64,000 nt of DNA from NCBI GenBank assembly GCA_964419495.1, contig CAYQQX010000006.1, positions 486 through 64,485 on the forward strand. Reading direction: 5' to 3'. The notes beneath the pieces were generated by a model. That model worked only from the letters and a program-made list of their open reading frames with translations, was not told the DNA's origin and did no database searches. The DNA comes from an uncultured Anaerolineales bacterium (GTDB lineage Bacteria > Chloroflexota > Anaerolineae > Anaerolineales > UBA11858). Made by a program: the position numbers and the translations under genes. Positions 49,995 through 64,000 of this stretch are shown here, in pieces (positions within the stretch are counted from its first letter, which is position 1; every line of letters starts with the position of its first letter).

Positions 49995-51227
49995 CTATTC
50001 ATGCCGCAGTGCTTCGATGGGGTCGAGTTGTGCGGCTTTATCTGCCGGGTAGTAGCCGAAGAAGATGCCCACTGCGGCGGCTGACCCGAAGGCTAATAAG
50101 ATTGAACTGGGGACGACGACAGTGCGCATCCCACCGGTTAAGTTGAAGATCCAAGATCCGCCCACGCCGACGATAACGCCTAGCAACCCGCCGACCAGGC
50201 TGAGCAGCAGAGCTTCGGTGAGGAACTGCATGCGGACGTCGTTTGGGCTGGCTCCCACCGATTGGCGGATACCAATTTCCCGAGTTCTTTCTGTGACGCT
50301 GACCATCATGATATTCATGATGCCGATGCCGCCCACCAGAAGGGAAACAGCTGCTACCCAAGCCAACAAGTTGCGGAATGCTTCGGTGGTAGCTTCTTGG
50401 GTTTGGATGATGTCGTCTTGGGTTTGGATGGCGAAATCCGGCTCTTCCAGGCTGACATTGTGACGCTTGGCCAGCAGCAGTTCGATTTGCAGGATGACAT
50501 TTTCCTGATCGGCGTCCTCGGCCAATTCAACATAGATCATGCGCACGCGGTCGCCAGCGAACTTGGCAATCTGTGAGGGTGTGAACTTCTGGAAGACAAC
50601 GGTGATAGGCATATAGATGCGCGAGTCGTAGTCAACATCGCCGACCAAACCTTTGTCGTCAAAGACTCCGATCACGGTGAACTTGGTGCTGCCCACGGTG
50701 ACAGTTTGACCAACCGGAGGTTCGTCCCCGAAGAGTTCTTCTGCCAGGCTGGAACCCAGAACAATTACTTTTTGATCACGATCAATCTCAGCCTGATTGA
50801 AGTAGCGGCCCTCAGCGAGTGTCATATCACGCACGGAGGGGAAATCCTGGGTTGTCCCCAAGATGGCGACATCCTCAATGGTGACATTCCCCGCTTTGAT
50901 AGTCTGCGTACTGGATTGCTCGACGACCACGCCGGTCACGCCGTTGACTTCATCAAAGATGGCAAAGGCATCGTTATAGACCAACCCACCAGATGAGCCT
51001 CCCTGGCTGCTGAATCCAGCCCGGCTGAAGCTTGACTGGACAAAGACCAGGTTTGTACCCAGACTGGTGATTTCATCTGCGATGGTGGCTTCTGCCCCGG
51101 CGCTGATGGCAATCATGATAATCACAGCCGAGACGCCGATGATCACGCCCAGCATGGTCAGCAGCGAGCGCAACTTGTTGCGCACTAACCCTTGCGAGGC
51201 GATTTTGATTATTTTTTCAGGTTTCAT
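49995..51227 (-). CDS. MacB-type ABC transporter permease (FtsX fold with a periplasmic domain)
   Basis: An N-terminal TM helix, a periplasmic MacB_PCD of about 230 aa, then three C-terminal TMs containing TERTREIGIRQSVGA. Confidence 0.9.
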   Translation of the reverse strand: MKPEKIIKIASQGLVRNKLRSLLTMLGVIIGVSAVIIMIAISAGAEATIADEITSLGTNLVFVQSSFSRAGFSSQGGSSGGLVYNDAFAIFDEVNGVTGVVVEQSSTQTIKAGNVTIEDVAILGTTQDFPSVRDMTLAEGRYFNQAEIDRDQKVIVLGSSLAEELFGDEPPVGQTVTVGSTKFTVIGVFDDKGLVGDVDYDSRIYMPITVVFQKFTPSQIAKFAGDRVRMIYVELAEDADQENVILQIELLLAKRHNVSLEEPDFAIQTQDDIIQTQEATTEAFRNLLAWVAAVSLLVGGIGIMNIMMVSVTERTREIGIRQSVGASPNDVRMQFLTEALLLSLVGGLLGVIVGVGGSWIFNLTGGMRTVVVPSSILLAFGSAAAVGIFFGYYPADKAAQLDPIEALRHE

Positions 51228-51979
51228 TATTCTTTCTCTTTCTGAATGCTAACGGCTAACTGCTGACCGTTCTTTTTCCCATTTAGTTTGTCTGTGTCGA
51301 TGCGCCCATCTAAGAAGCGGATCACGCGCTGGGCGTAAGCGGCAATTTCATCTTCGTGGGTGACCATTACGATCGTACTGCCGTTGCGGTGCAGATCGGT
51401 CATTAGGCCCATGATCTCCCGGCCGGATTTCGAATCCAGGTTTCCGGTGGGTTCATCGGCCAGGATCAGCACTGGATCGTTGACCAGGGCACGTGCAATC
51501 GCCACGCGTTGCACCTGTCCACCGGAAAGTTCATGGGGCTGGTGATCCACTCGGTCGGCCAAGCCAACCGCCTTTAGCGCTTCGAGCCCCTTTTGCTTGT
51601 GTTCAAGTTCCGATAAATTCCCATTGCGGTTGTAAAGCAGTGGCAACAGCACATTTTCCAGGGCTGACGTACGCGCCAGCAAGTTGAAACTCTGAAAGAC
51701 AAACCCGATGCGCTGATTGCGAATAACGGCCAGCTGGGTTTTATCCAGGTCACTGACATCCTCACCAGCCAGAAAGTATTGACCGGAAGTAGGGCGATCC
51801 AGGCATCCGATGATATTCATCAGTGTGCTTTTTCCAGAACCTGATGGTCCCATGATGGCGACAAACTCGTTCTCTTCGATCTCCACGCTGATCTCATCCA
51901 GTGCTCTGACCTGGGCATCGCCTATGCCGTATACTTTGGTTAGTTCTCTGGTTTGGATGATTGCTTGTTGTTTGTTCAT
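51227..51979 (-). CDS. ABC transporter ATP-binding protein (MacB/LolD type)
   Basis: Walker [10 protein letters not shown], signature [15 protein letters not shown] and Walker [12 protein letters not shown]. Confidence 0.95.
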
Positions 51980-52068
51980 TAGTTATTCCTTGGATATTCC
52001 ATTATGAATATTATTAAATCTACACTCTTTAGCTAAATTCCATGTACAAATCTACTTTGATGACTTGT

Positions 52069-52272
52069 TTAGATCACTTTCAGTCCAGCCAATTGGATTA
52101 CGCTCATCATGTAACAATACGTTTCCCAATCGACTCCATGAACCACGATGGATGTTGAATTATTCTCATTATGGTTGAATTCAGCTCCATCGAATTCACT
52201 GGTGAAGTCAGCTTGCCCACGAACGTTAATCTCAATATCAAACACTCTTTTCATTTTTAGGGCACCATCCAA
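52069..52272 (-). CDS. small hypothetical protein inside the efflux operon
   Basis: A 67-aa ORF fills the gap between the adaptor and ATPase genes on the same strand. It is visibly more AT-rich than its neighbours and has no recognisable motif. Confidence 0.35.
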   Translation of the reverse strand: MDGALKMKRVFDIEINVRGQADFTSEFDGAEFNHNENNSTSIVVHGVDWETYCYMMSVIQLAGLKVI

Positions 52273-52291
52273 AAGCGACTACCCAGCATTT

Positions 52292-53902
52292 TCACTGTGT
52301 CTCTACAATTCCCGTTGTTACAATCTCACCAGCTTCAAGCCCTGAGATGATTTCCGCCGAGGTGAAGTCCATCAAGCCGACTTCCACCACCCGCAGCCTG
52401 GGTTCGTCATCTTCTACAACGAAGACTCCATATTCATCGGGGCTTAGCTCACGTACTGCCTCCACGGGTACCAACACTGCATCATCTGCTCTTCCACCGA
52501 TCACATCCACAGATGCGGTCAGGCCCACAGGCAGAGTGTGCGGCTTGGCGAAAGAGTTAGCGTCCAGTATGACCAAGGTCTTGATAGCTGCAACGCCAGA
52601 AACCGACTCTAGTTGAGGATCAACCTGGATAATATGTCCGGTGAACATGTCATCAGGGTAAGCATCAAAGACGACTTCGACCTCATAGCCAACCGCGACC
52701 TTGTCGAGATCGGTTTCGTCGAGATAAACGACCAAAAGCGGTTGGCTCAGATCTGCCAGTGTAATGAAAGAATTTGAACTGAGGGATTCGCCAACATCGG
52801 CAGTGATATCCAGGATAGTGCCGTTTATGGGGGCGATCAGATCAATTACGGCTTGATCTTCCAGGGCTAAGGCAAGATTGGCCTGGGCATTTACGAATTC
52901 AGCTTCTGCTAGTGCAATCTCATCAGGGTCGGGGCCATCTTGGAGCGCTACCCATTGAGCTTGGGCTGCGGCCAGTTCCGCCTCGGCCAGCGCGATTTCA
53001 CCGAGAGATGGTCCGTCTTTGACTCGATCCCATTCGCTTAGCGCATCAGCTAACTGTGCCTGAGCAGTGGCAAGTTCGGCTGCGGCCACTGATTGATCCA
53101 ACTCGCTTCCTGTGCCAGACATAGCGTTGTAGTCACGCACGGCTTCATCGTAATCTTGCTGCGCCGCGGATAGCTGTGCCTGGAAATTAGCTTTGGTGAG
53201 ATCATCATCAGGTCTGTTGGCGTAGGGTGCAAAATTCTCTTGGGCTTGCTCCAGAGCATCTTCGGCCAAAATAACTTGTGCCCAGGCAGCATCGATATCT
53301 GCCTGGTTAGCTGTAGAATGGGTGAAGTTGTGGTTGCGTTCGGCATCGTAAAGAGCATCTTCTGCTGCAGCAACCGCCTCCCACGCTTGAGCCTGTTGGA
53401 GTTCGGAGTTCATCAGATTATCGAGTGCAGCTTGCGCATCTTCAACAGCTTTCAACGCCTCTGCTGCATCCATCTGAGCATTCTCGTAGAGTGTGTCGAG
53501 ATCTAGCTGCGCCTGGAGCACATTAAGTTCAGCCTGGGCAACGGCGGCCATAATCGCTTCGACTGTGTCATTGGTTTGCAAGCGTGCCAGCACATCTTCT
53601 CTTTGCACTTCATCCCCTACTTGAACTAGCAGCTCATTGAGAGTGCCACTTTCATCAAAGCCCAATTCGATTTCTGTGGCTGCGACAACTTCTCCGGCCG
53701 CGCTGGCAAAAACGATCATGTCACCTCTACGGGCGATCGCGGTTTGCAAGGGCGTATCTTCGAGCGCTTCTGCTGGGGTCGCGGTGAGCGCGACAGCGTA
53801 ATTCCCGCCGATTGCCAAAACAACAACAGCAGCAATCGCCAGGACTAATCCCTTTTTATTCCACAGGTTTTTGTTGATAAAGAACGACTTGATTTTTTGC
53901 AT
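52292..53902 (-). CDS. HlyD/MacA-type periplasmic adaptor with a very long coiled-coil hairpin
   Basis: An N-terminal TM helix, a lipoyl-like domain (GDMIVFASAAGEVV...), about 250 aa of Ala/Gln/Glu/Leu-rich heptad sequence, then a beta-barrel and MP domain. The ATG at 53902 is preferred over the TTG at 53989. Confidence 0.85.
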   Translation of the reverse strand: MQKIKSFFINKNLWNKKGLVLAIAAVVVLAIGGNYAVALTATPAEALEDTPLQTAIARRGDMIVFASAAGEVVAATEIELGFDESGTLNELLVQVGDEVQREDVLARLQTNDTVEAIMAAVAQAELNVLQAQLDLDTLYENAQMDAAEALKAVEDAQAALDNLMNSELQQAQAWEAVAAAEDALYDAERNHNFTHSTANQADIDAAWAQVILAEDALEQAQENFAPYANRPDDDLTKANFQAQLSAAQQDYDEAVRDYNAMSGTGSELDQSVAAAELATAQAQLADALSEWDRVKDGPSLGEIALAEAELAAAQAQWVALQDGPDPDEIALAEAEFVNAQANLALALEDQAVIDLIAPINGTILDITADVGESLSSNSFITLADLSQPLLVVYLDETDLDKVAVGYEVEVVFDAYPDDMFTGHIIQVDPQLESVSGVAAIKTLVILDANSFAKPHTLPVGLTASVDVIGGRADDAVLVPVEAVRELSPDEYGVFVVEDDEPRLRVVEVGLMDFTSAEIISGLEAGEIVTTGIVETQ

Positions 53903-54056
53903 TGGAAACACCTCTTTGGTTTTATTTTTGTTTGATAAGCTGCCCAAAGATAACAATCCCGAGTATTTTCTGGTAGTGAGCGGGGTCAAATACTAGGCTC
54001 AGGACATATGACCGCGGTCATATTCCAACTGTGACTGTGGTACATACATGACCTAA

Positions 54057-55346
54057 TTGGTTTTGTGCTATGATGGTGGTGTGAAAGAATCGAAACTTGA
54101 ACCTGGACTGCTGAGGGTTTTCCGCTGGTATGTAATTGTGCGGGGAATCTTTTTGGCGATCAGTATTTCTTGGAATATCTTTTTTGGGGATGTTTGGGAA
54201 GACAAGAGAGGGATCTTGGGTGTTGATGATTTAGGGCTTTTCGCCCTAGCGACTTCGATTGAGCTCATTCTGTTGTTCTTCTATCTTTCATGGCCCCCTT
54301 TCAGACGTGTCTTGGGAAGATACTTTCTTCCTATTGCATTAACCTTTTCGGCCGCAGGATTGATTCTGGAACAGTATTTATTCTCCAGTTTTTTCCGGCT
54401 TTGGCAGCCACTGCCTTTTTTATATATTTTGTTGATCCTTGTAGCCTGGCAATATCGTTTTTCAGCTGTGCTTATTTTTGGGATTGGTGCTACCTTACTT
54501 GAAATATTCTTAGCTCGCTTATTCATGACAAGAATACGAGGGCTTCCCCCCTTTGATATAGATATGATCGTTATATACGGTCGTCTTGCAGCCAGCGTGG
54601 CTTCATATCTGGTGCTGGGTTATGTAGTCAATCGTTTGGTGCAGGCTCAAAGGGAACAGCACCAGGCACTTGCTGATGCTAACCTCAAGCTGGTTCAACA
54701 TGCCAGCACCGTTGAGCAGTTGTCCACCAGCCGCGAGCGGCTTCGCATCTCACGAGAACTGCATGACACTCTGGCACACACCCTCAGCGCTCTGGCAGTT
54801 CAATTCGATGCCCTTGCGACGGTTTGGGGGTCGATCCCTGAAAAGGCCCAGGAGATGGTGGAGCAGATGCAGTCAACCACGCGCTCGGGGCTTGATGAAA
54901 CCCGTCGTTCCTTGCGCGCTCTGCGAGCATCGCCGCTCAAAGAGGTTGGACTGGTATTAGCACTTCAGGGTTTAGCAAAAGATTTCGCCGCCCGCCATAA
55001 CCTGGCTTTGCAGATTGATTTGCCTGAGAACTTAGATGGTTTTCCCCCAGAAGTGGAGCAGTGCTATTACCGTGTGGCCCAGGAGTCTTTGGAGAATATC
55101 GCCCGGCATGCGGCCGCCAAAGTGTTGACCATCCAAATGACTAAAGATAGCTCTGGTTTGACGATGACTATCTCTGATGACGGCCGAGGGTTTGATGTTT
55201 TGGGGGATGTAACCAAAGAACATCTTGGCCTTCAGGGGATGCAGGAAAGAGCGGGTTTGATCAATGCCGGTCTCGAGGTGGAGAGCAGCCCTGGAGAGGG
55301 TACGACCGTTCGACTGCGCTTGCTAATGGAGAATGAAGCATCATGA
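54057..55346 (+). CDS. intramembrane-sensing histidine kinase (HisKA_3 / NarL-partner type)
   Basis: About 6 TM helices with no large loop. H-box RISRELHDTLAHTLSAL, then HATPase (ENIARHA..., DDGRGF, GLQGMQERA). The start is uncertain (TTG 54057 or GTG 54081). Confidence 0.9.
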   Translation: MVLCYDGGVKESKLEPGLLRVFRWYVIVRGIFLAISISWNIFFGDVWEDKRGILGVDDLGLFALATSIELILLFFYLSWPPFRRVLGRYFLPIALTFSAAGLILEQYLFSSFFRLWQPLPFLYILLILVAWQYRFSAVLIFGIGATLLEIFLARLFMTRIRGLPPFDIDMIVIYGRLAASVASYLVLGYVVNRLVQAQREQHQALADANLKLVQHASTVEQLSTSRERLRISRELHDTLAHTLSALAVQFDALATVWGSIPEKAQEMVEQMQSTTRSGLDETRRSLRALRASPLKEVGLVLALQGLAKDFAARHNLALQIDLPENLDGFPPEVEQCYYRVAQESLENIARHAAAKVLTIQMTKDSSGLTMTISDDGRGFDVLGDVTKEHLGLQGMQERAGLINAGLEVESSPGEGTTVRLRLLMENEAS

Positions 55347-55990
55347 TCCGAGTGCTGGTCTGTGACGATCAGGCAGTGGTAGCTGATGGCTTAGAGATGA
55401 TCCTCAGCGCTGATGCTGAGATAGAAGTCGTTGACTTGGCTTATGGCGGTGACGAGGTCATTGAAAAAGCCGCTCAATCCAAACCCGATGTAATCCTGAT
55501 GGATCTGAAGATGCCAGGGGTCAATGGTATTCAAGCCACCCGTGAAATCCATAAAGCCCACCCGGAGATCAAGATTATAGTTTTGACAACCTTTGGGGAT
55601 GACGAATGGGTTTTCGACGCTGTGCGCAGCGGCGCGGCGGGGTATTTGCTCAAAGGCACTCCCCGCGTAGAGTTGATCAAAGCCGTCAAAGGTACGGCAG
55701 CGGGGGAATCCTATATCGACCCGGCAGTAGGGAGCAAGATTTTGGCTCAAGTTGCTCGGAGTGCTTCCGCCCAGGAAACTACGGTCGCCAAGGATCTCAG
55801 TGATCGTGAGATGGACGTGCTGCGCTTGTTAGCCCAGGGGTTTTCAAATGCTGAAATCGCGCAGAAACTCTATCTCACCAAGGGAACAGTGCGCAATTAT
55901 GTCAGTTCGATTTTAGCAAAACTTGAAGTTGAAGATCGCACGCAGGCGGCAATATTGGCTATCCGTCACGGATTGGTGGAATCGGAATAA
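55343..55990 (+). CDS. NarL/LuxR-family response regulator
   Basis: Receiver VLVCDDQ, DVILMDLKMPG and the conserved Lys in YLLKG. The LuxR HTH reads LSDREMDVLRLLAQGFSNAEIAQKLYLTKGTVRNYVSSIL. There is a 4-nt overlap with the kinase gene. Confidence 0.94.
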   Translation: MIRVLVCDDQAVVADGLEMILSADAEIEVVDLAYGGDEVIEKAAQSKPDVILMDLKMPGVNGIQATREIHKAHPEIKIIVLTTFGDDEWVFDAVRSGAAGYLLKGTPRVELIKAVKGTAAGESYIDPAVGSKILAQVARSASAQETTVAKDLSDREMDVLRLLAQGFSNAEIAQKLYLTKGTVRNYVSSILAKLEVEDRTQAAILAIRHGLVESE

Positions 55991-56031
55991 GGGATTAGTT
56001 TATTCACCGCTGCTTCTTTGGAGTTAATAGT

Positions 56032-56739
56032 TTGGATAACCAGTCGACAGGAATTGGGACGATAAACGAGAAACCCCTTCACGCTGCTTTGAAAACCTGG
56101 TGTGCACGACCTGGAGATCTTCTGGAGTTTAAGGTTGACGGTTATGTAATCGATATCGTTAGGGAAGATACCCTAATAGAAATCCAAACCGCCAATTTTT
56201 CTGGTATCAAAAGCAAACTAAAAAACTTGACAACCAACCACAAATTGCGACTGGTTTACCCCCTCGCAGTTGAGCTTTGGATTTTGAAATTACCTAGAGA
56301 GGGAGAAAATAAACCAACTCGCCGCAAATCTCCCAAACGAGGCAAAATAACACACCTTTTCAGGGAGCTCGTCAGTTTTCCAGAATTGGCACAAAACCCC
56401 AATTTTTCTCTAGATATTGTGTTGATCCAGGAAGAGGTTGTCCGGCGTTTTGCCGGCAAGACTCATTGGCGCAGACGAGGTTGGGCAACTCAGGAGAGAA
56501 GATTGTTGAAGGTCTTAGACCATCGTTTATTCTCCAAGCCAATGGATTACATCGAATTGACCCCACCTGGATTGCCTGATAGGTTTACGACCGCTGACCT
56601 TGCCTCCCAGTTAGCGATCCCACGTAGACTTGCTCAGCAAATGGCTTATTGCTTGCGAAAAATGAAGGCAATTGAAAAAGTGGGCACAAGAAAAAGATCG
56701 AACATATACACCATTGGGGACGCGTTTACGGATGTATAA
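56032..56739 (+). CDS. PD-(D/E)xK (CoiA-like core) nuclease-fold protein with a C-terminal winged-helix domain
   Basis: EKPLHAALKTW...GYVIDIVREDTLIEIQTANF gives a D...ExQ catalytic-type motif. The C-terminus ADLASQLAIPRRLAQQMAYCLRKMKAIEKVG is wHTH-like. TTG start. Confidence 0.6.
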   Translation: MDNQSTGIGTINEKPLHAALKTWCARPGDLLEFKVDGYVIDIVREDTLIEIQTANFSGIKSKLKNLTTNHKLRLVYPLAVELWILKLPREGENKPTRRKSPKRGKITHLFRELVSFPELAQNPNFSLDIVLIQEEVVRRFAGKTHWRRRGWATQERRLLKVLDHRLFSKPMDYIELTPPGLPDRFTTADLASQLAIPRRLAQQMAYCLRKMKAIEKVGTRKRSNIYTIGDAFTDV

Positions 56740-57775
56740 AGTTCTTCATAAATTATGCGGTCAAGAGATCACCATCTTGGATTCGCGTTGGAGGGCACAG
56801 ATTGAATACCTAAGATCACTGGATAAACAGGATGACTTGATTTGTCCAGGCTGCGAACAGCCAGTAAGGGTGCGCGCCGGGAAAGTTTGCCGCTGGCATT
56901 TTGCCCACAAACACCTGCAAAATTGTCCCTTTGAGACAGAATCGCCGTTATTACTCCAGAACCGGGCGGTTCTTTATAATTTCTTAGCCAGTAAATTTGG
57001 TGATGATCACGTTACAGTTGAAAAGAAGCTGGATTTACCAGAACTCCCACGGCATGTCGATTGTTGGGTGGAAAAGGATGGCTATTGTTTTGCAATTTGG
57101 ATATTCGACCAGCGCATGCCCCCAGATGAACGATCGAATCTGAAATCATGTTTCAGAAAGATGGAAACAGTGGTGAATTGGGTGTTTGCCGCCGAAATGC
57201 TGCGAGTGGATGTTATCCAGTCAAATCGCGTTCACTTAACCACAACTGAACGGGCTTTTATCAACCGCTCCGATTACGATCTGGCCTGGCAGACTCATCA
57301 CAAACAGATGGGCGGTTCGCTGCATTATTTTGATGTCGATGGTGAGCGTCTAATCACCTATCGGAATTTAGAATTGAGTCATGCTCCCCAGCTTTTTGTT
57401 GGGAAAAGAATCGAGACCGAATTATCTGATATGCTGGTATCTCTCAGCCACGGCGAGTTTGTTCACCCTGGTGAACAAGAGAAACTGAGCCAGCGCAAAA
57501 GCAAAATATCCACTGAAAAGAAAATTGCCGATCAACGGCTGCGCCAAGCGGAAGAATTTCTCAATCAGATCTCAGGCAAACAGCTAAAATCATATCCGAA
57601 AAAAAGCGATAGTTCTTATGGCGAAGAAAATCCAAAAATCGTTGATGCCAGTGGACCTTTTGCGCGTGAAGGGGTCTGCAAATTCTGCGGAACTGTCACA
57701 GCAGATTGGTTTTTTTTTGATGGCAAAACGAATAGTTGTATCTGCCGCCAATGCAAAGATCAAGCGGATTATTAA
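56732..57775 (+). CDS. CoiA-like protein with a degenerate nuclease core and a C-terminal zinc ribbon
   Basis: LICPGCEQPVRVRAGKVCRWHFAHKHLQNCPFETESPLLLQNRAVLYNFL parallels the CoiA N-terminus. The expected aDV...EvQ core reads VDCWV...AIWIFDQ. The C-terminus has CKFCG...CICRQC. The ATG overlaps the upstream stop (ATGTATAA). Confidence 0.6.
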   Translation: MYKVLHKLCGQEITILDSRWRAQIEYLRSLDKQDDLICPGCEQPVRVRAGKVCRWHFAHKHLQNCPFETESPLLLQNRAVLYNFLASKFGDDHVTVEKKLDLPELPRHVDCWVEKDGYCFAIWIFDQRMPPDERSNLKSCFRKMETVVNWVFAAEMLRVDVIQSNRVHLTTTERAFINRSDYDLAWQTHHKQMGGSLHYFDVDGERLITYRNLELSHAPQLFVGKRIETELSDMLVSLSHGEFVHPGEQEKLSQRKSKISTEKKIADQRLRQAEEFLNQISGKQLKSYPKKSDSSYGEENPKIVDASGPFAREGVCKFCGTVTADWFFFDGKTNSCICRQCKDQADY

Positions 57776-57819
57776 TCAGGGGAACTAGGTGTAATTCCTA
57801 CACACCCTAAATGTTATTC

Positions 57820-58866
57820 TTAGATTAACTCCTGCGCAACCAACAATTCAGCATTTTGCAGTGACCCTCCGGCCGCACCTTTGACGGTGTTGTGGGAAAG
57901 CACGATATATCGTAAATCAAAGATCGGGTCTGGGCGTACGCGGCCTATGACGGTGGTCATGCCATTTCCAGCATCTCGGTCGCGGCGTGGTTGAGGGCGG
58001 TTAGGTTCGCGACGTACTTTGATGGTCCGCAGGGGGGAGCTGGGTAAAGCGCGCACCACCTCGGGAGGCAGGAAAGACTCCCATACAGCGATAGCCTCTT
58101 CTGGGGTAGCCGATTTTTCTAATTCAATCGAAACACAAACGGTATGTCCATCTACAACCGGGACGCGATTGGTATGGGCCGAGATAGGTATGTTTGTATA
58201 GTCGATGTGATCATCCTTCAATTTTCCGAGCATTTTATTCGGCTCATCTTCGAGTTTCTTTTCTTCTCCCCCAATATAGGGCACAACGTTATCAAGTAGA
58301 TCTAGAGAAGGCACACCGGGATACCCGGCCCCGGATAGCGCTTGCATTGAGACAGCAAAGATACGTTTGACGCTAAAGGCATCGAATAAGGGTTTGAGTG
58401 CTACAGTGAACCCAGTGGATGTGCAGTTGCAACTAGTCACGATGCAACCGCTCCAGGCGCGTTTTTTGCGTTGCGCTTCGATGAGGTAGGCGTGTTCGGG
58501 GTTTACTTCAGGGATGATCAGGGGCACATCTTCTGTCATGCGGTAGGATGATGCGTTCGAGAAAACCTGGTAACCGGCTTGAGCAAAAGTGGGTTCTAGT
58601 TCTTTCGCCAAGCCAGAAGGCAGGGCGCTGAATACTATTTCTGCATCCAAGTTAGCTTTGGTTTCTAATACGGGCATGTCTTTGGCCCATTCGGGCATGT
58701 CTCCAGGAATTACCCAGCGGCAGCCATCTATGTAACTGCCGCCTATCGTGCGGTCTGAGCCGGTCAGGGCTGTGACTTCGAACCAAGGATGACCACTTAG
58801 CAATTGTACAAATCTCTGCCCAACGGTACCGGTGGCGCCTAGGATAGCTACGTTTCGTTTTTGCAT
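57820..58866 (-). CDS. asd: aspartate-semialdehyde dehydrogenase
   Basis: VAILGATGTVGQRF (NADP binding) and the active-site SCNCTSTG. Confidence 0.95.
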   Translation of the reverse strand: MQKRNVAILGATGTVGQRFVQLLSGHPWFEVTALTGSDRTIGGSYIDGCRWVIPGDMPEWAKDMPVLETKANLDAEIVFSALPSGLAKELEPTFAQAGYQVFSNASSYRMTEDVPLIIPEVNPEHAYLIEAQRKKRAWSGCIVTSCNCTSTGFTVALKPLFDAFSVKRIFAVSMQALSGAGYPGVPSLDLLDNVVPYIGGEEKKLEDEPNKMLGKLKDDHIDYTNIPISAHTNRVPVVDGHTVCVSIELEKSATPEEAIAVWESFLPPEVVRALPSSPLRTIKVRREPNRPQPRRDRDAGNGMTTVIGRVRPDPIFDLRYIVLSHNTVKGAAGGSLQNAELLVAQELI

Positions 58867-58912
58867 GACTTCTTCTCCTTTGATTGCTTTGGTTTGACTG
58901 GTTACGCATAGA

Positions 58913-60328
58913 TCATTTTATGATCAGCTTGTGGATTGAACGAATGCTTTCGTCTACATCTGATGCAGCTACAACCATGCTAATGCTGACTTCTGATGAG
59001 CCTTGTGCAATAGCGATTACATTGATCCCGGTATCCCCCAGGGCGCTGAAAATACGCCCGGCGATACCGGGGGTGTGACGCATTCCTACACCCACAGCAG
59101 TTACAATGACCACATTTTCCATTGCCCAAATGTGATCGATATCTTGGCGTCCCAACTCAGCTTGGAACTCACTTTTTAACGAGGAAATCACTACAGCGGT
59201 AGCTGATGAAGGCAGTGTGAAGCAGATGCTTTGTTCTGAAGATGCCTGGGATATCAAAGACACGCTGGTATCTGTTCGGGCTACCGCGCTGAATGCGCGA
59301 CCGGCGATTCCTTGTACACCGATCATGCCGCGCCCTTCAATGGTGATCAGGGATTGATTTTTTATCGCAGTAACAGCGCGAATATTGCCAACGACATTCT
59401 TGTTTTGATCGTTATTGGCAATTATTTGCGTGGCAGGTCCTTGTGGGTTAAAGGTGTTTTTGATCCACAAAGAGATATCTTGTTCGATGACGGGACGGAT
59501 TGTCTTGGGATGGAGCACTTTTGCTCCGAAATAGGCAAGCTCAGATATTTCCCTGTAAGTGACAGTTTCGAGGGTGCGGGCATTAGGAACCAAGCGTGGA
59601 TCGGAGGTCATCACGCCATCTACATCAGTCCAGATCCATACTTCATCTGCATTAAGAGCGGTACCAATAATCGCTGCACTGAAATCACTGCCGCCGCGCC
59701 CCAATGTTGTTGTGACGCCATCTTCGGTTGAACCAACGAAACCAGTTATGACCGGCAGAATCCTATCTTCTAAAAGGGGTTCCAATCGTGATTGACAAAG
59801 ATCTCTTGTCGATTCTATATCGGGGTAAGCAGATTGAAAAACAGCATCCGTACGGATAAGTTTGCTGGCATGTACACCCTCAGCAGTGCAGCCCGTTTCC
59901 CTCAGGTATGCGGCCAGTAAGGGCATAGACATGGTTTCCCCTAAGGATGAGATGGCATCCAATGCTTTAGGGGAGAGTTCGTTTAGCACACGGATTGCCT
60001 GACATAGATTGAGAAATTCGTTGACCTTTTCCTCTATGATGGCATGGATGCATTTCTTTTCGTCGGGTGATTCCAATAGCTCTGAAATTGCAGAGAAGTG
60101 TTTTTGGCGGATTTTTTCTGCCAACTTAGTGTAGCGCGCAGTCTGATTATCGGAGGCTGCATAAGCCCCTTTGATGAGCATATCTGTCACACCGCTCATG
60201 GCTGAAACGACCGCTAAAATACGTACCCAATTATCCCGGGCTTCCAGAATAACAGCAGCTGCTTGCCTGATTGCGATGGCATCACCCATTGATGTCCCCC
60301 CAAATTTCATTACCAGTGTTTTTTGCAT
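58913..60328 (-). CDS. lysC: aspartate kinase (monofunctional, two ACT domains)
   Basis: LVMKFGGTSMGDA, TLGRGGSDFSAA and VWIWTDVDGVMTSDPR, with C-terminal ACT repeats. The ATG at 60328 follows AGGAGC. Confidence 0.95.
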   Translation of the reverse strand: MQKTLVMKFGGTSMGDAIAIRQAAAVILEARDNWVRILAVVSAMSGVTDMLIKGAYAASDNQTARYTKLAEKIRQKHFSAISELLESPDEKKCIHAIIEEKVNEFLNLCQAIRVLNELSPKALDAISSLGETMSMPLLAAYLRETGCTAEGVHASKLIRTDAVFQSAYPDIESTRDLCQSRLEPLLEDRILPVITGFVGSTEDGVTTTLGRGGSDFSAAIIGTALNADEVWIWTDVDGVMTSDPRLVPNARTLETVTYREISELAYFGAKVLHPKTIRPVIEQDISLWIKNTFNPQGPATQIIANNDQNKNVVGNIRAVTAIKNQSLITIEGRGMIGVQGIAGRAFSAVARTDTSVSLISQASSEQSICFTLPSSATAVVISSLKSEFQAELGRQDIDHIWAMENVVIVTAVGVGMRHTPGIAGRIFSALGDTGINVIAIAQGSSEVSISMVVAASDVDESIRSIHKLIIK

Positions 60329-60372
60329 GTCGTTGCTCCTTTCAAATTGCAAGATAACAAATGTGCAGAATC

Positions 60373-60400
60373 AAAAACGCGAAGCCGTTGGCTTCGCGCT
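60373..60400 (-). terminator. attenuator terminator 44 nt upstream of lysC
   Basis: Minus strand reads CGCGAAGCC-AAC-GGCTTCGCG followed by TTTTT. Confidence 0.75.
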
Positions 60401-60425
60401 GGGTAAACAAAACTAAAAAAACTAC

Positions 60426-60506
60426 TTAACCACTCTGAAGCAACGGCGGAGGGATCTCCGGCATTGTAGTCATCATTGTAGTGGTAGTAGTTTTTTGCTT
60501 CAACAT
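60426..60506 (-). CDS. candidate leader peptide MLKQKTTTTTMMTTMPEIPPPLLQSG
   Basis: Own translation. 7 Thr and 3 internal Met codons lie within codons 6-15. Its 3' part is complementary to the 5' half of the terminator. Confidence 0.6.
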   Translation of the reverse strand: MLKQKTTTTTMMTTMPEIPPPLLQSG

Positions 60507-60521
60507 AAATTTATTCTGGGG

Positions 60522-60550
60522 ATGGTAGCATAGCATCCAGAAGGAGTCAA
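60522..60550 (-). promoter_or_regulatory. candidate promoter of the lysC leader
   Basis: Minus strand reads TTGACT-17 nt-TGcTACCAT, ending about 15 nt before the leader ATG. Confidence 0.4.
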
Positions 60551-60566
60551 CCGGAAGATATCTGCG

Positions 60567-62867
60567 CTACGGCAGCAATACGGTAGGACTAACTTTATCG
60601 AAATAGATCATAGCGTCAAAGGTTTTGAGTAGATCGAGTTCGATGAAATAGTCTTCGGCCAGGGCAGGAGCATACTGGCTGCCGATCAGGCGTGTAGGGA
60701 TCGGCTCGGCCAACCATTCAAAGCCAAGCTCTTGGGTGTTGGATTGATCAAGAAAAAGTATGAAGGCAGGATAACCCGCATAATGGGCAAGCCACTCAAA
60801 GCTTTGGTTTGGTGTTGGTGGAACGCTGATCGCTTCAAGTTGCGGAGGCTCAACGCAGGTATTGAGAGCCACAATCTCACCCGACCCAAAACTGAATCCG
60901 ATCGAAAATGGTTCTTCTCCAATAATGGGTCGAATGAGTCTACCCATGGTAAATTGATAGAAGTAGATTTGGTGTTGCGTGTTTGTGATCCCAAGGGTCG
61001 AATTTCGCCCCCATAAAAGAAATTTGGCGCCATCTCCACGCTGCTGAACGACCCAACGTAGATTTTCCTCGATGAACAGTATTACGGAATTATAGGCCCT
61101 GTAGGCCTCTTCTGCTTGCTGAACGCCCCGCATGGTTTTGAGAGCGAGAGTAAATTCCTGCTGAGAAGATGCTGCTGTGTAGCTTTCCTGGCGGTTGCTG
61201 ATGAAATCATAGGCCTGCTGGATATTGTCCCGGCATTCCCCCCTCGAACTGAGATAGGCGTATGCGTATTCGCCCCAATCATCTTCAAAACTCCGGAAGC
61301 AGGCAAAGAGTTTTTCCATTCGCTCTCTTTGTTCTGGATCGACCCGTTCTAGATAAGCAAGCACTTCATCCATTGACTGGGATGGATTAGGGATCATCAC
61401 CCCAAAAACGCGGATGGTTGGGGAATCTCCGGGGTTCTGATTGTGCGCTCGCAATCCTTCGATCAAGTTGAGGGCTTCCTGACTTCCCCAGCGCGGGTCT
61501 GGGAATTCTGCCAGGACCTGGGCGGGATCGCCCTCCCCAGTGAGGAGATATTCATCTAATTTAAGTCCCAGCAGCCAGTCGATATCGAAGATTAGGGTGT
61601 CAAAGCCCTTTTCTGTCACCAGGGAATTAATGAGTTCTTTCTGAATTTGGAGAGATTCGTTAACTCCAACAAAAGGATTGCCGATATCAACTGAGCGCGC
61701 CTCCCCAATGCTTTCAACCAAGAGTGCAAGAGCTGTGTTCTCTGACGCTGATTTGGCAATATCCAGGGGAATAGCATTCTTTTGCATCCATGAGACGATT
61801 TCTGGGTCGGGAGCAGGTAGAAAGCCACTCTCCTCTGGCTCGAAGGAGATCGATATGGATGATATATCTGGTTCAGTTGGCTGCCAGGCTGGGAAGCCAT
61901 CGAAGTTGTAGTGATCTGTCAATTGAGTTAATTCAGAGCTGTCGGATCGCATGGTGAAAATTTCGTAGTTGCCTTCTCTCATCGAGTAGAAAGCGATCCG
62001 TTCACCGTCGGGTGACCAGGTTGGATAGGTATCTTTATCAACCTGGTATGTTAGGCGGTGAGGGTTTGAGCCGTCGGCGTTCATGACATATATTTCTTCA
62101 TTGCCGTCCCGGTCAGAAACGAAAGCGATTTGTGATCCATCTGGCGACCAGGCTGGGTCAACATCGCTGGCAGGGTGTTGAGTTAGATTGCGCTGCCCCG
62201 AGCCATCCGGGTTCATGATGAAGATCTCATTATTCTCTCCCACATCAGATCGATATAAGATCTTGCTCCCATCGGGTGACCACTTTGGCGAGCTGTTCCA
62301 AATATGATTGCCATTGTGATGATCTTGAGTTAACTGCATACGTCTGGAGCCGTTGGTGCCCATTACCCAGATATGCATAATTCCCGAACGATTGGAAGTA
62401 AAAGCGATCTGGGTTCCGTCTGGAGACCAATCCGGTTCGACGTCCAGAGCGCTCGAGTGCGTCAGGCGGACCAGAGAAGGAACGGGATTCTCAACTTGGT
62501 TTTTGTTCAACGGCATCACCATGATTTCCGAATTGATGCCGTCAAAGCGCTGAACGAAGGCGACCCACTGCCCATCGGGGGACCAGGCTGGCTGATTGAC
62601 CCGCTCTTCTATGTCGGTCAGGCGAGTGATGTTAGAGCCATCAGCGCTCATGGTATAAAGCTCTGATTCGCCATCGCGATAGGATGAGAAAAGGATTAGA
62701 TCGCTTGGGGCATTGGTGGATGCAGACACTGTGGTTGGAATCGATGTTGGTTGGGCAGTGATGTCTGGGGTGGTGGTTGCTGTACCCTGGGTTTGACATG
62801 CCCCCAGTGAAAGGGCCAATAATGATAGCCAAAAGATGAATACCAATCCCTTAGGTTTTTTAGACAT
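60567..62867 (-). CDS. lipoprotein: TolB-like beta-propeller fused to an erythromycin-esterase/ChaN-like C-terminal domain
   Basis: LSLGAC lipobox and a Thr-rich linker. About 6 PD40 repeats (SPDGxxIAF...). The C-terminal half (...KGFDTLIFDIDW...) resembles the EreA family, but the usual GExxHG reads GNPFVG. The ATG at 62867 is preferred. Confidence 0.7.
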   Translation of the reverse strand: MSKKPKGLVFIFWLSLLALSLGACQTQGTATTTPDITAQPTSIPTTVSASTNAPSDLILFSSYRDGESELYTMSADGSNITRLTDIEERVNQPAWSPDGQWVAFVQRFDGINSEIMVMPLNKNQVENPVPSLVRLTHSSALDVEPDWSPDGTQIAFTSNRSGIMHIWVMGTNGSRRMQLTQDHHNGNHIWNSSPKWSPDGSKILYRSDVGENNEIFIMNPDGSGQRNLTQHPASDVDPAWSPDGSQIAFVSDRDGNEEIYVMNADGSNPHRLTYQVDKDTYPTWSPDGERIAFYSMREGNYEIFTMRSDSSELTQLTDHYNFDGFPAWQPTEPDISSISISFEPEESGFLPAPDPEIVSWMQKNAIPLDIAKSASENTALALLVESIGEARSVDIGNPFVGVNESLQIQKELINSLVTEKGFDTLIFDIDWLLGLKLDEYLLTGEGDPAQVLAEFPDPRWGSQEALNLIEGLRAHNQNPGDSPTIRVFGVMIPNPSQSMDEVLAYLERVDPEQRERMEKLFACFRSFEDDWGEYAYAYLSSRGECRDNIQQAYDFISNRQESYTAASSQQEFTLALKTMRGVQQAEEAYRAYNSVILFIEENLRWVVQQRGDGAKFLLWGRNSTLGITNTQHQIYFYQFTMGRLIRPIIGEEPFSIGFSFGSGEIVALNTCVEPPQLEAISVPPTPNQSFEWLAHYAGYPAFILFLDQSNTQELGFEWLAEPIPTRLIGSQYAPALAEDYFIELDLLKTFDAMIYFDKVSPTVLLP

Positions 62868-63072
62868 GATGTTACCCTTTGAACTTCCTTGGTGTTCAGA
62901 TAATGCAGATTTTGCGCTGCCTAGAAGTATATTGCATATTGCAATCACTAAACCAGGATTATATAGGTTTTCCCAGGATAATCGCCTATAGAGTTGGCAG
63001 AGAATAACTTCACAAATAAGTTGTCATTCCGAGTGATGTAGATGCCAAGTACCTAAATGCGATTACCCTGTA

Positions 63073-63106
63073 GGTATTCCTGTCCGGTATTCAACTCCGG
63101 TATTCA
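63073..63106. repeat. three phased GGTATTC repeats (13-nt spacing) in a promoter region
   Basis: ggtattcctgtcc ggtattcaactcc ggtattcagc, about 70 nt upstream of the ATG at 63173. Confidence 0.6.
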
Positions 63107-63172
63107 GCATTCCAGGTTGATATGGTATATTCACAACGATAGACAATAGTACTTAAGGAGGATCAACGGGTT

Positions 63173-63637
63173 ATGAGTGGAATTCAAGCAAGGATCGAAA
63201 AAGCCGCCCAAAGCATTCTAGAAAATGAAAAGTTAACTGCAGATTTGGACGATAATGCTGCACAAGTTCTCTTGGATTGGGGAATTGCCAGTGCCAAACA
63301 GATCGTTCAGGGCACCCTGGGGTTGGACGATATGGAAGCGGAAGTCACTATGTATCAGCCTATGCGTGCCAACCGCAGACTGATGCGTGGAGTCAACAAA
63401 TTAGTATCTCGATATGACATGCTCGGGGAAGAAGGGCAAGTCGAAGCGCTGGAAAAAATCATCTCGCAGGCCGGGGTGATCTACGGCTCCGAGTATGTAC
63501 CTCCGTCATCCGACCATCAAAGTGACTTCTTGTCTGAAACAAAAGAAATAATCACAGATATTCCGCAATGGATTGCGAAATTACGCAGTTTTGTTGAAGG
63601 CCAAAAACCTTCAGCTCCCAGTTCATTATTCTCATAA
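63173..63637 (+). CDS. hypothetical protein (154 aa, helical, cytoplasmic)
   Basis: Good SD (AAGGAGG) 8 nt upstream. No recognisable motif. Confidence 0.6.
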   Translation: MSGIQARIEKAAQSILENEKLTADLDDNAAQVLLDWGIASAKQIVQGTLGLDDMEAEVTMYQPMRANRRLMRGVNKLVSRYDMLGEEGQVEALEKIISQAGVIYGSEYVPPSSDHQSDFLSETKEIITDIPQWIAKLRSFVEGQKPSAPSSLFS

Positions 63638-63652
63638 CATAAGGAGATCGTC

Positions 63653-64000
63653 ATGGCCAGGAAGAAGAGCTCAAAAAAATCGAGTGGTGCATTTCGAGTG
63701 TTAATGATTCTGTTAATCGTTGCTGCGGGAGCACTCTACATATTTACTGGTTCTGATCCTTTGGGATTATTTACTGAATTAGAAGAAGTCCCTGTAGCTG
63801 AAGAACAAGTTGAACCGGTAGAAGCAGTCGGCGGTGGTGGGGATTGGTGGCAGGTATATTTCACCGACCCGGCGACGATCAACGATTCTGAAAATCTGGC
63901 TGGGTCTATCCCCGAGAAGCTGATCGCGCTCATTGACAGTGCCCAACAATCGATCCACATCGCTTCATTCGAGTTTAATCTCACCCCAGTGGCCGAGGCG
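63653..64000 (+). CDS. membrane-anchored phospholipase-D-superfamily protein, N-terminal fragment (runs off the right edge)
   Basis: MARKKSSKKSSGAFRVLMILLIVAAGALYIF is the anchor. IPEKLIALIDSAQQSIHIASFEFN is typical of the first PLD-like repeat. The SD AAGGAG is upstream. Confidence 0.6.
   Translation, partial: MARKKSSKKSSGAFRVLMILLIVAAGALYIFTGSDPLGLFTELEEVPVAEEQVEPVEAVGGGGDWWQVYFTDPATINDSENLAGSIPEKLIALIDSAQQSIHIASFEFNLTPVAEA

Follow-up and report, generated by a model that had tools for sequence, protein, structure and literature searches.

A stretch of 64,000 nucleotides (nt) from the genome of an uncultured Anaerolineales bacterium (GenBank assembly GCA_964419495.1, contig CAYQQX010000006.1, positions 486 to 64,485 of the forward strand; hereafter the window, with positions counted from its first letter) contains two intact open reading frames (ORFs), located head to tail on the plus strand, and our analysis identifies these two separately evolving genes as a conserved two-gene operon of one Anaerolineales lineage. 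Gene 1 (56032..56739, plus strand; 235 amino acids (aa), TTG start, TAA stop at 56737-56739) belongs to the DUF8091 family (PF26351) and probably combines a nuclease domain of the PD-(D/E)xK type with a DNA-binding winged helix. Gene 2 (56732..57775, plus strand; 347 aa, ATG at 56732-56734) is, judging by profile comparison, a member of an unnamed sister family of CoiA with a probably altered and inactive nuclease site. The pair has co-diverged across at least four genomic contexts, and its linkage is not random.

With respect to function, we propose a facultative two-protein DNA-processing module in which gene 1 would be the cutter and gene 2 a non-catalytic or re-tooled partner. We put the probability of this tentative proposal at roughly 0.4. 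What is new here is a variant within known kinds of proteins, namely the PD-(D/E)xK nucleases and the relatives of CoiA.

The CoiA-related family of gene 2

In Bacillota, CoiA is induced during competence and has recently been shown to act as a structure-specific endonuclease that resolves D-loops (PMC13663708). The N-terminal region of gene 2 (residues 23-67; 56798..56932, plus strand) belongs to the Pfam family CoiA_N (PF25164; E-value 3.1e-14, 52.6 bits against a cut-off of 26.3) and contains a zinc finger formed by C38, C41, H56 and H59, plus C65. The four finger residues are conserved, respectively, in 147, 146, 144 and 149 of 151 representatives of the gene-2 family, the set to which all conservation counts for gene 2 refer. 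DUF7830 falls just under its Pfam cut-off in the same protein. The model for the nuclease domain of CoiA (CoiA_nuc, PF06054) does not match gene 2 at E≤1, nor does it match anything else in the genome at E≤10, whereas CoiA proteins of Chloroflexota reach E-values of 1.8e-22 to 7.3e-10 with it. A profile-profile comparison (hhalign) of the gene-2 family with bona fide CoiA, represented by an alignment of 11 proteins from Chloroflexota with matches to the two CoiA models of Pfam, aligned 162 columns spanning residues 7-177 of gene 2 (98.7%, E-value 3.3e-16) and thus detected homology in the nuclease domain as well; therefore, gene 2 is a genuine, if divergent, relative of CoiA, in its nuclease domain no less than in its zinc finger. 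The family comprises 332 clusters (at 50% identity) at E≤1e-30, and 1417 at E≤0.001, a number that includes other relatives of CoiA. NCBIfam contains no family for gene 1 or gene 2, and a sequence search of the PDB with gene 2 returned only chance-level matches to RING and designed proteins.

The AlphaFold2 (AF2) model of gene 2 has a mean predicted local distance difference test score (pLDDT) of 89.2, with values below 50 for residues 285-309. Residues 70-245 (56939..57466, plus strand) encompass a CoiA-type nuclease-fold core and a family-specific β-rich extension, as delineated with hhalign, MAFFT and VIA-align. In a VIA-align structural search with residues 70-242, the top matches were nearly all members of the PD-(D/E)xK superfamily: AF1548 (Z 5.9), VC1899 (5.8), 9y1l_B (5.7), I-Bth0305I and BstEII (5.5 each), Bax1 (5.3), Can2 (5.0-5.1) and Vsr (4.9). 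A Foldseek search gave Hjc with E-value 0.012 and probability 0.96; neither the gene-2 nor the gene-1 model matched any PDB entry at E≤0.001. The PD-(D/E)xK core fold is thus recognizable in gene 2 at low Z (4.9-5.9) and, given these low values, homology to CoiA is the stronger argument.

In pneumococcal CoiA, the catalytic residues are D95 in β2 and E105 in β3, the latter being required according to the E105A variant (PMC13663708, section 5). When the two families are aligned with MAFFT L-INS-i, the helix-1 motif E-S-x-R-H-x-x-G-K of CoiA corresponds to E-S-P-L-L-L-Q-N-R of gene 2, with His replaced by Leu and Lys by Arg, and the β3 motif A-V-E-F-Q corresponds to A-Y-W-I-F, such that E-x-Q is replaced, in register, by W123-I-F125; the β1 Glu and β2 Asp of CoiA are kept (E97 and D110). 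Position 123 is never D or E, and position 125 is always hydrophobic or small. We favor this register because it requires no gaps and because the conserved Ala and the pattern of hydrophobic residues agree with it as well. The active site of gene 2 is therefore probably altered, with non-polar residues replacing the helix-1 His and, if the MAFFT register is correct, the Glu and Gln of β3, and the protein would probably be inactive as a nuclease of the canonical kind. Additional invariant residues are specific to the family (T172-E173-R174, H198-Y199, R211, Q220, H245 and E248).

The C-terminal part of gene 2 consists of a long helix (residues 248-283; 57473..57580, plus strand, from the AF2 secondary structure), which is a coiled-coil candidate, followed by a disordered linker (residues 285-309) and a terminal zinc ribbon with four cysteine positions (C316, C319, C336/C338 and C341) and a T-x-DW motif (57668..57766, plus strand), the residues of which are conserved in 137-143 of the 151 representatives. 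These results bear out much of a first-pass annotation that had been made from the DNA letters only: a CoiA-like N-terminus, a coiled-coil stretch and a terminal Cys ribbon in gene 2, and the Glu to Trp and Gln to Phe replacements at the catalytic positions (in the MAFFT register) had all been proposed there, and the motifs quoted for both genes are all present. In gene 2, these motifs are CPGC...WHFAH...C...ES, VDCWV (including D110, 151/151), AIWIFDQ (including W123, 144/151) and the terminal CxxC...CxC..C ribbon. In five metagenome contigs (L136, L141, L142, L145 and L150), the gene-2 homologue is present as two consecutive ORFs, the C-terminal half having a frame of its own, which is suggestive of either frameshifts or errors in the assembly.

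DUF8091 and the predicted nuclease domain of gene 1

The assignment of gene 1 to DUF8091 comes from the precomputed PF26351.1 annotation of an identical protein; the same annotation is present on 120 of the 120 listed homologues, and the Atlas clusters nearest to gene 1 consist to 100% of PF26351 proteins (scores 0.97-0.98). Gene 1 is a full-length member of this family, and a search of a large collection detected 2792 homologues at E≤0.001. Our own scan with gene 1, made with a Pfam copy that lacks the PF26351 model, gave no match at E≤1, including PF06054 and PF25164, a sequence search of the PDB gave no match either, and a literature search for DUF8091 and DUF7830 found no mention of either name.

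The AF2 model of gene 1 is confident (pLDDT 89.5, predicted template modelling score 0.84) and consists of two domains. The nuclease-like domain (approximately residues 12-168; 56065..56535, plus strand) was delineated from the model, from VIA-align and from the invariant residues. The VIA-align search with residues 3-168 retrieved YaeQ (2g3w_B, Z 7.2, 4.3 Å over 114 aligned residues), SfsA (4dap_A, Z 7.1) and AF2093 (2ph7_B, Z 7.1); the first two we take to be members of the PD-(D/E)xK superfamily. The secondary structure elements follow the canonical order of a helix, three strands, a helix and a strand (helix 15-24, strands 30-35, 38-44 and 47-51, helix 56-69, strand 71-86); D41 is part of the second strand, and E50-x-Q52 of the third. 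This core order, together with D41 and E50-x-Q52, is that of the PD-(D/E)xK superfamily, whereas the fold similarity itself is middling (Z 7.1-7.2). Across 72 homologues from several phyla, E13, H17, K21, E32, D41, E50, Q52, K62 and W83 are invariant (72/72), which covers the motifs NEKPLHAALK (E13, H17, K21), IDIV (D41) and IEIQT (E50, Q52), and a basic loop, R98-K-S-P-K-R-G104, is nearly invariant. Eight of these residues are collinear with residues that are invariant in CoiA (gene 1/CoiA: E13/E71, H17/H75, K21/K79, E32/E98, D41/D109, E50/E123, Q52/Q125 and W83/W150). Given the aligned invariant residues and the lack of profile similarity, the resemblance of gene 1 to CoiA is confined to the catalytic constellation; gene 1 is not a member of the CoiA family by either Pfam or hhalign.

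The C-terminal domain (residues 168-235; 56533..56736, plus strand) is a winged helix-turn-helix, as had been suspected in the first-pass annotation: the best VIA-align match is 2cwe_A (Z 7.9, 2.3 Å over 66 aligned residues), followed by many regulators of the MarR/ArsR type, and Foldseek gave eS25 and CadC with probability 1.00. A Foldseek search of viral structures with the gene-1 model gave no match at E≤0.001 either. Taken together, gene 1 is probably a nuclease domain of the PD-(D/E)xK type joined to a DNA-binding winged helix.

Homologues of gene 1 come from Chloroflexota, Planctomycetota, Cyanobacteriota, Gemmatimonadota, Acidobacteriota and other phyla, as well as from metagenome-assembled genomes labelled archaeal. 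Identity across phyla is 51-63%, and in the gene-1 tree the other phyla are nested among Chloroflexota, a pattern indicative of both strong constraint and horizontal spread. One homologue (G049:C26:1427-2098, minus strand) contains a single in-frame TAA and is probably a pseudogene or the result of a sequencing error. Two metagenome-assembled genomes carry two DUF8091 copies each (L018, L019, L058 and L076), and the same ORF of about 220 aa is found upstream of all four copies, directly in L019, L058 and L076 and about 1 kb away in L018; this ORF is a subclade-specific neighbour.

Linkage of the two genes

We examined two sets of loci, namely the best 80 gene-1 loci in species-representative genomes (of which 4 have less than 300 nt of downstream sequence, too little to be judged) and 68 metagenome loci found with gene 2 (of which 44 have at least 700 nt upstream). 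In the window, the genes overlap by 8 nt (ATGTATAA, 56732..56739, plus strand, read in the sequence), and the claim of the first-pass annotation that gene 2 starts within the end of gene 1 stands; the start implied there, 56733, is one base off, the ATG being located at 56732, and the frame of 56733 contains 12 stops. Homologues support this ATG, given that gene 2 starts with MYK, MFK or MLK at the same position in 33 of 33 aligned sequences. The order gene 1 to gene 2, in which the genes either overlap or are no more than 15 nt apart, was found in L002 (the same sequence as L086), L003, L004, L039, L128 and L130; the junctions elsewhere measure -20, +5, +15, about +10 and about +12 nt, compared with -8 nt in the window.

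Among the flanking ORFs of at least 100 aa, none is common to the window and the other pairs, except for its near-identical relative L002/L086, and none is common to the other pairs, except for one ORF in L003 and L128. This near-absence of common flanking ORFs places the pair in at least four different contexts, and the two genes have been kept tightly together while the flanks changed, across a divergence of gene 2 down to 49% identity. The gene-1 tree includes 72 of 84 candidate rows (12 were dropped, L039 and L128 among them, as the ORF pattern missed them) and contains a clade of 18 rows with a Shimodaira-Hasegawa-like approximate likelihood ratio test (SH-aLRT) support of 91, which consists of all six rows with the order gene 1 to gene 2 and 12 unpaired rows. 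In the gene-2 tree (43 rows), a clade of 8 rows (SH-aLRT 96) consists of the six paired rows, L111, which is truly unpaired, and L088, which is too short to judge. We conclude that the pair has co-diverged across at least four genomic contexts and that the linkage is not random.

The two families also meet in the opposite order, in one further gene-2 locus. In L094, the gene-2 homologue (280-1314) is followed by a 135-nt spacer with a GC-rich inverted repeat and then by the gene-1 homologue (1450-2148). Both genes of L094 belong to clades distant from the window pair, which makes this a second, independent juxtaposition.

A ribbon tail shared by neighbours of DUF8091 genes

A third kind of juxtaposition involves a protein of 298 or 305 aa that is encoded on the plus strand just upstream of gene-1 homologues in two loci (L060:4044-4940, upstream of L060:4998-5672, and L080:1358-2275, upstream of L080:2478-3164). 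This protein has no Pfam family, and its similarity to gene 2 is limited to the terminal ribbon (55% identity in 31 residues; hhalign 98.3%, 40 columns); it also contains a coiled-coil-like stretch and a Cys/His-rich N-terminal part. A search for the ribbon pattern in six frames of the 80 gene-1 loci detected it in 6 of the 80, namely the four gene-2 loci plus L060 and L080. When only the ribbon tail of gene 2 (residues 300-347) was used as the query of a word-based search, nothing was retrieved beyond gene 2 and the relative closest to it.

It is difficult to attribute to chance that members of a rare family have come to lie, on three separate occasions, beside proteins with one small module in common. 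One explanation, which we consider somewhat doubtful, is that the four-Cys ribbon with the T-x-DW motif might be a portable docking module for DUF8091 nucleases, with which sensors or recognition proteins of different kinds would call in one highly conserved cutter; such ribbon-tailed adaptors would then include gene 2, as an inactivated relative of CoiA that has joined DUF8091 in two gene orders of independent origin, and the unrelated protein of about 300 aa in L060 and L080. Should this be the case, DUF8091 would be a shared effector nuclease, functioning on its own in the majority of genomes and directed to other targets by the adaptors in some genomes, a modular adaptor-effector arrangement that has not been described for CoiA-like proteins.

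Predicted function and alternative explanations

Under the proposed two-protein module, gene 1 would be the cutting subunit, with a predicted nuclease activity, and gene 2 would be a non-catalytic (or re-tooled) partner that binds DNA structures and guides or regulates gene 1 where both occur, possibly docking on it through the zinc-ribbon tail in direct physical contact. The process involved might be DNA repair or recombination, or defence.

Several lines of evidence weigh against this proposal. The fold matches of both proteins are middling (Z 5-8), and the search tool warns that such values can reflect a common arrangement only. In the hhalign register, D126 of gene 2 is placed on the catalytic Glu of CoiA, and 127 of the 151 representatives have an acidic residue (D or E) there; furthermore, D110, R174 and R211 (151/151 each) and E97 (150/151) are invariant or nearly so, that is, gene 2 may not be inactive. 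The profiles of gene 1 and gene 2 are not similar (hhalign 0.1%), nor are those of gene 1 and CoiA (0.2%), and a domain-only comparison of gene 1 with CoiA is not significant either (P 0.07). The first-pass annotation had described the two genes as paralogues, a description that the profiles do not support; of its claim that gene 1 is a CoiA-like PD-(D/E)xK protein, the fold and the residue constellation survive, and profile searches give no link to CoiA.

The distribution of the genes points in the same direction. Of the 80 gene-1 loci, no more than 4 have gene 2 immediately downstream (L002, L003, L004 and L039), and gene 1 is found upstream of gene 2 in 3 of the 44 gene-2 loci (L086, L128 and L130). 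Among 50 whole genomes with gene 1, 45 lack gene 2 and any ribbon-tailed protein; the remaining 5 carry gene 2, adjacent to gene 1 in 4 of them and unlinked in G613, and the ribbon tail is present in these same 5 and in no other. These counts depend on phylogeny and are not independent because the 50 genomes were picked by similarity to gene 1 of the window. In a sample of 401 Planctomycetota genomes, gene 2 is present in 2, both of which lack gene 1 (2/2; completeness unknown). In a sample of 401 Chloroflexota genomes, gene 1 is present in 19, gene 2 or CoiA-like proteins in 18 and full-length gene 2 in 1; the genome of the window is the only one with both, the other 18 gene-1 genomes and the other 17 CoiA-like genomes being disjoint. 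The two genes thus do not co-occur as a rule and are not an obligate unit: the notion that they are encoded as a unit is valid for one clade and fails in general. The first-pass annotation had named the absence of the two genes together in other genomes as the observation that would speak against the pair and, both families being mostly solitary, this has turned out to be half true.

The solitary state of most members of both families is also what would be expected if gene 1 and gene 2 had autonomous single-gene functions and were merely neighbours, with their adjacency reflecting inherited synteny or a common promoter and no partnership, an explanation that we regard as a distinct possibility. 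It is further favored by the lack of any other conserved neighbour family for gene 1 (in 80 loci) and of any for gene 2 (in 68 loci), by the unlinked genes of G613 and by the spacer with the inverted repeat that separates the genes in L094. Mere neighbours are not expected, however, to stay overlapping or within 15 nt of each other when all flanks change and gene 2 diverges to 49% identity, or to come together a second time in the reverse order, and simple autonomy does not account for the third juxtaposition either, in which a gene-1 homologue is accompanied by a different protein with the same ribbon tail. Both families are rare (19/401 and, for full-length gene 2, 1/401 Chloroflexota genomes), and therefore repeated chance adjacency is unlikely. 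The strong conservation of polar residues outside the canonical motif of gene 2, in which E248 (149/151) joins the residues listed above, leads to a different explanation: both proteins could be active and form a two-enzyme module, with the gene-2 site rebuilt from E97, D110, D/E126, H198, H245, E248, R174 and R211, perhaps for anti-phage defence. The hhalign alignment of D126 with the catalytic Glu agrees with this; against it, D or E in 127 of 151 sequences is low for a catalytic residue, and the MAFFT register puts a Trp on that Glu. As for defence, 5 of the 12 gene-2 loci examined have neighbours of the defence or toxin-antitoxin type (a type I restriction-modification system in L101, PIN in L104, NOV_C in L112, AAA_21 with DUF4276 in L123, and SIR2 with RES in L131), and the GC content of the pair (0.45-0.47) is slightly below that of most flanks (0.49-0.54). 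Nevertheless, PADLOC-DB 2.0, the search of which the first-pass annotation had suggested, contains no family that matches either protein at E≤1, that is, no known defence system was recognized; the neighbourhoods of gene 1 are ordinary or housekeeping, with just a single PIN_2 and a single transposase among 66 ORFs from 18 loci; the flanks in the window are a two-component system and aspartate-pathway genes; a tblastn search of plasmids and phages with gene 1 gave no match; and PHROGs yielded nothing meaningful for either protein, the only match being one to a transcriptional-regulator family on the winged helix of gene 1 (0.087). On balance, two active enzymes appear unlikely; a role in defence is possible for gene 2 and less likely for gene 1. 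We also considered a toxin-antitoxin system and rejected it, both proteins being large and mostly solitary.

That gene 2 might simply be the canonical competence CoiA is suggested by its CoiA_N domain and homology to CoiA and by the presence of DprA and ComEC in the genome, but we consider this highly improbable and reject it. The pneumococcal E105, for which the E105A variant is described in section 5 of PMC13663708, has no counterpart in gene 2 in the MAFFT register, PF06054 has no match in gene 2 or in the genome, YraN, an alternative resolvase, is encoded in the same genome, full-length gene 2 is very rare (1/401 Chloroflexota and 2/401 Planctomycetota), and gene 2 is not located beside competence genes.

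Whichever explanation applies, the analysis documents a large sister family of CoiA (332 clusters) that keeps the scaffold and, in the MAFFT register, not the catalytic Glu-x-Gln of β3; relatives of CoiA outside Bacillota are numerous and have no assigned role. It also provides a first functional lead for the widespread and very conserved DUF8091 family, in the form of the CoiA-type constellation, the winged helix and the repeated ribbon-tailed neighbours. If the proposed partnership of gene 1 and gene 2 is true, the pair would be a simple system for studying the guidance of an active nuclease fold by an inactivated one; otherwise, the pair would show that genes can be tightly paired, and even overlap, in a single lineage and yet form no obligate unit.

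Genomic context of the pair in the window

A GGAG motif (56020..56023, plus strand), 8 nt 5' of the TTG of gene 1, was read in the sequence and may function as a Shine-Dalgarno element. Upstream on the same strand are a histidine kinase gene and a gene for a response regulator of the LuxR type, with the stop of the former overlapping the start of the latter at 55343-55346. The regulator gene ends 41 nt before gene 1 and, therefore, the four plus-strand genes could form one transcript. Matching sequencing runs comprise 8 DNA runs from 2 studies, with no RNA run among those listed. A consensus scan for promoters and terminators gave fewer sites than shuffled sequence, with none convincing and none that delimits an operon. 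Within the region 49995-55990, a minus-strand set of genes for an ABC exporter of the MacB type (permease, ATPase and HlyD-like adaptor) precedes the plus-strand kinase and regulator.

Downstream of gene 2, the minus strand encodes aspartate-semialdehyde dehydrogenase and aspartokinase (57820-60352), which are located between gene 2 and a TolB-like gene; in the close relative L002/L086, the TolB-like gene directly follows gene 2 and the aspartate-pathway genes are absent at that place. The reading of the neighbourhood covered positions 50000-64000 and found no competence genes in this part of the window, as the first-pass annotation had noted; DprA, ComEC and YraN are encoded on other contigs of the same genome.

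Comparison with known systems

Gene 2 resembles CoiA in the N-terminal C2H2 finger, the collinear nuclease-fold domain, the β1 Glu, the β2 Asp and the presence of a long C-terminal extension. It differs from CoiA in that it has no PF06054 match, lacks the helix-1 His and, if the MAFFT register is correct, the Glu and Gln of β3, and has its own conserved extension, a coiled coil and a zinc ribbon, in a genome that also has YraN. According to a 2026 PNAS paper, CoiA is restricted to Bacillota and anticorrelated with YraN. In our sample, 17 of the 401 Chloroflexota genomes, each of them a member of family f79, encode bona fide-looking CoiA proteins of 360-400 aa (L154-L170; for example, L155:727-1854, minus strand); the two f79 proteins that were scanned, as well as a 188-aa protein from a class-mate genome, pass both the CoiA_N and the CoiA_nuc model, and YraN is encoded in 5 of the 5 f79 genomes tested.

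Gene 1 shares with CoiA the same ordered invariant set (E-x3-H-x3-K in helix 1, E in β1, D in β2, E-x-Q in β3, and W); unlike CoiA, it has no zinc finger, a winged helix-turn-helix instead, and no significant profile similarity. Within the uncharacterized DUF8091 family, gene 1 is a typical full-length member, and what is unusual is the coupled CoiA-related gene downstream, which is found in 4 of the 80 loci of the family.

Heteromeric nucleases that combine active and inactive subunits of the same fold include XPF-ERCC1, Mus81-Eme1, the catalytic and structural subunits of the archaeal tRNA-splicing endonuclease, and the large and small subunits of R.BspD6I; in these systems, the partners are obligate and mostly recognizable as paralogues. 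Two structures from this group, 3if0_X and 2p14_A, are among the VIA-align fold matches of gene 2. As a working model, the pair would be analogous to such nucleases in that adjacent genes encode two nuclease-fold proteins, one of them probably active and the other probably inactive. It differs from them in that gene 1 and gene 2 have no profile similarity to each other and in that each of the two families occurs mostly without the other.

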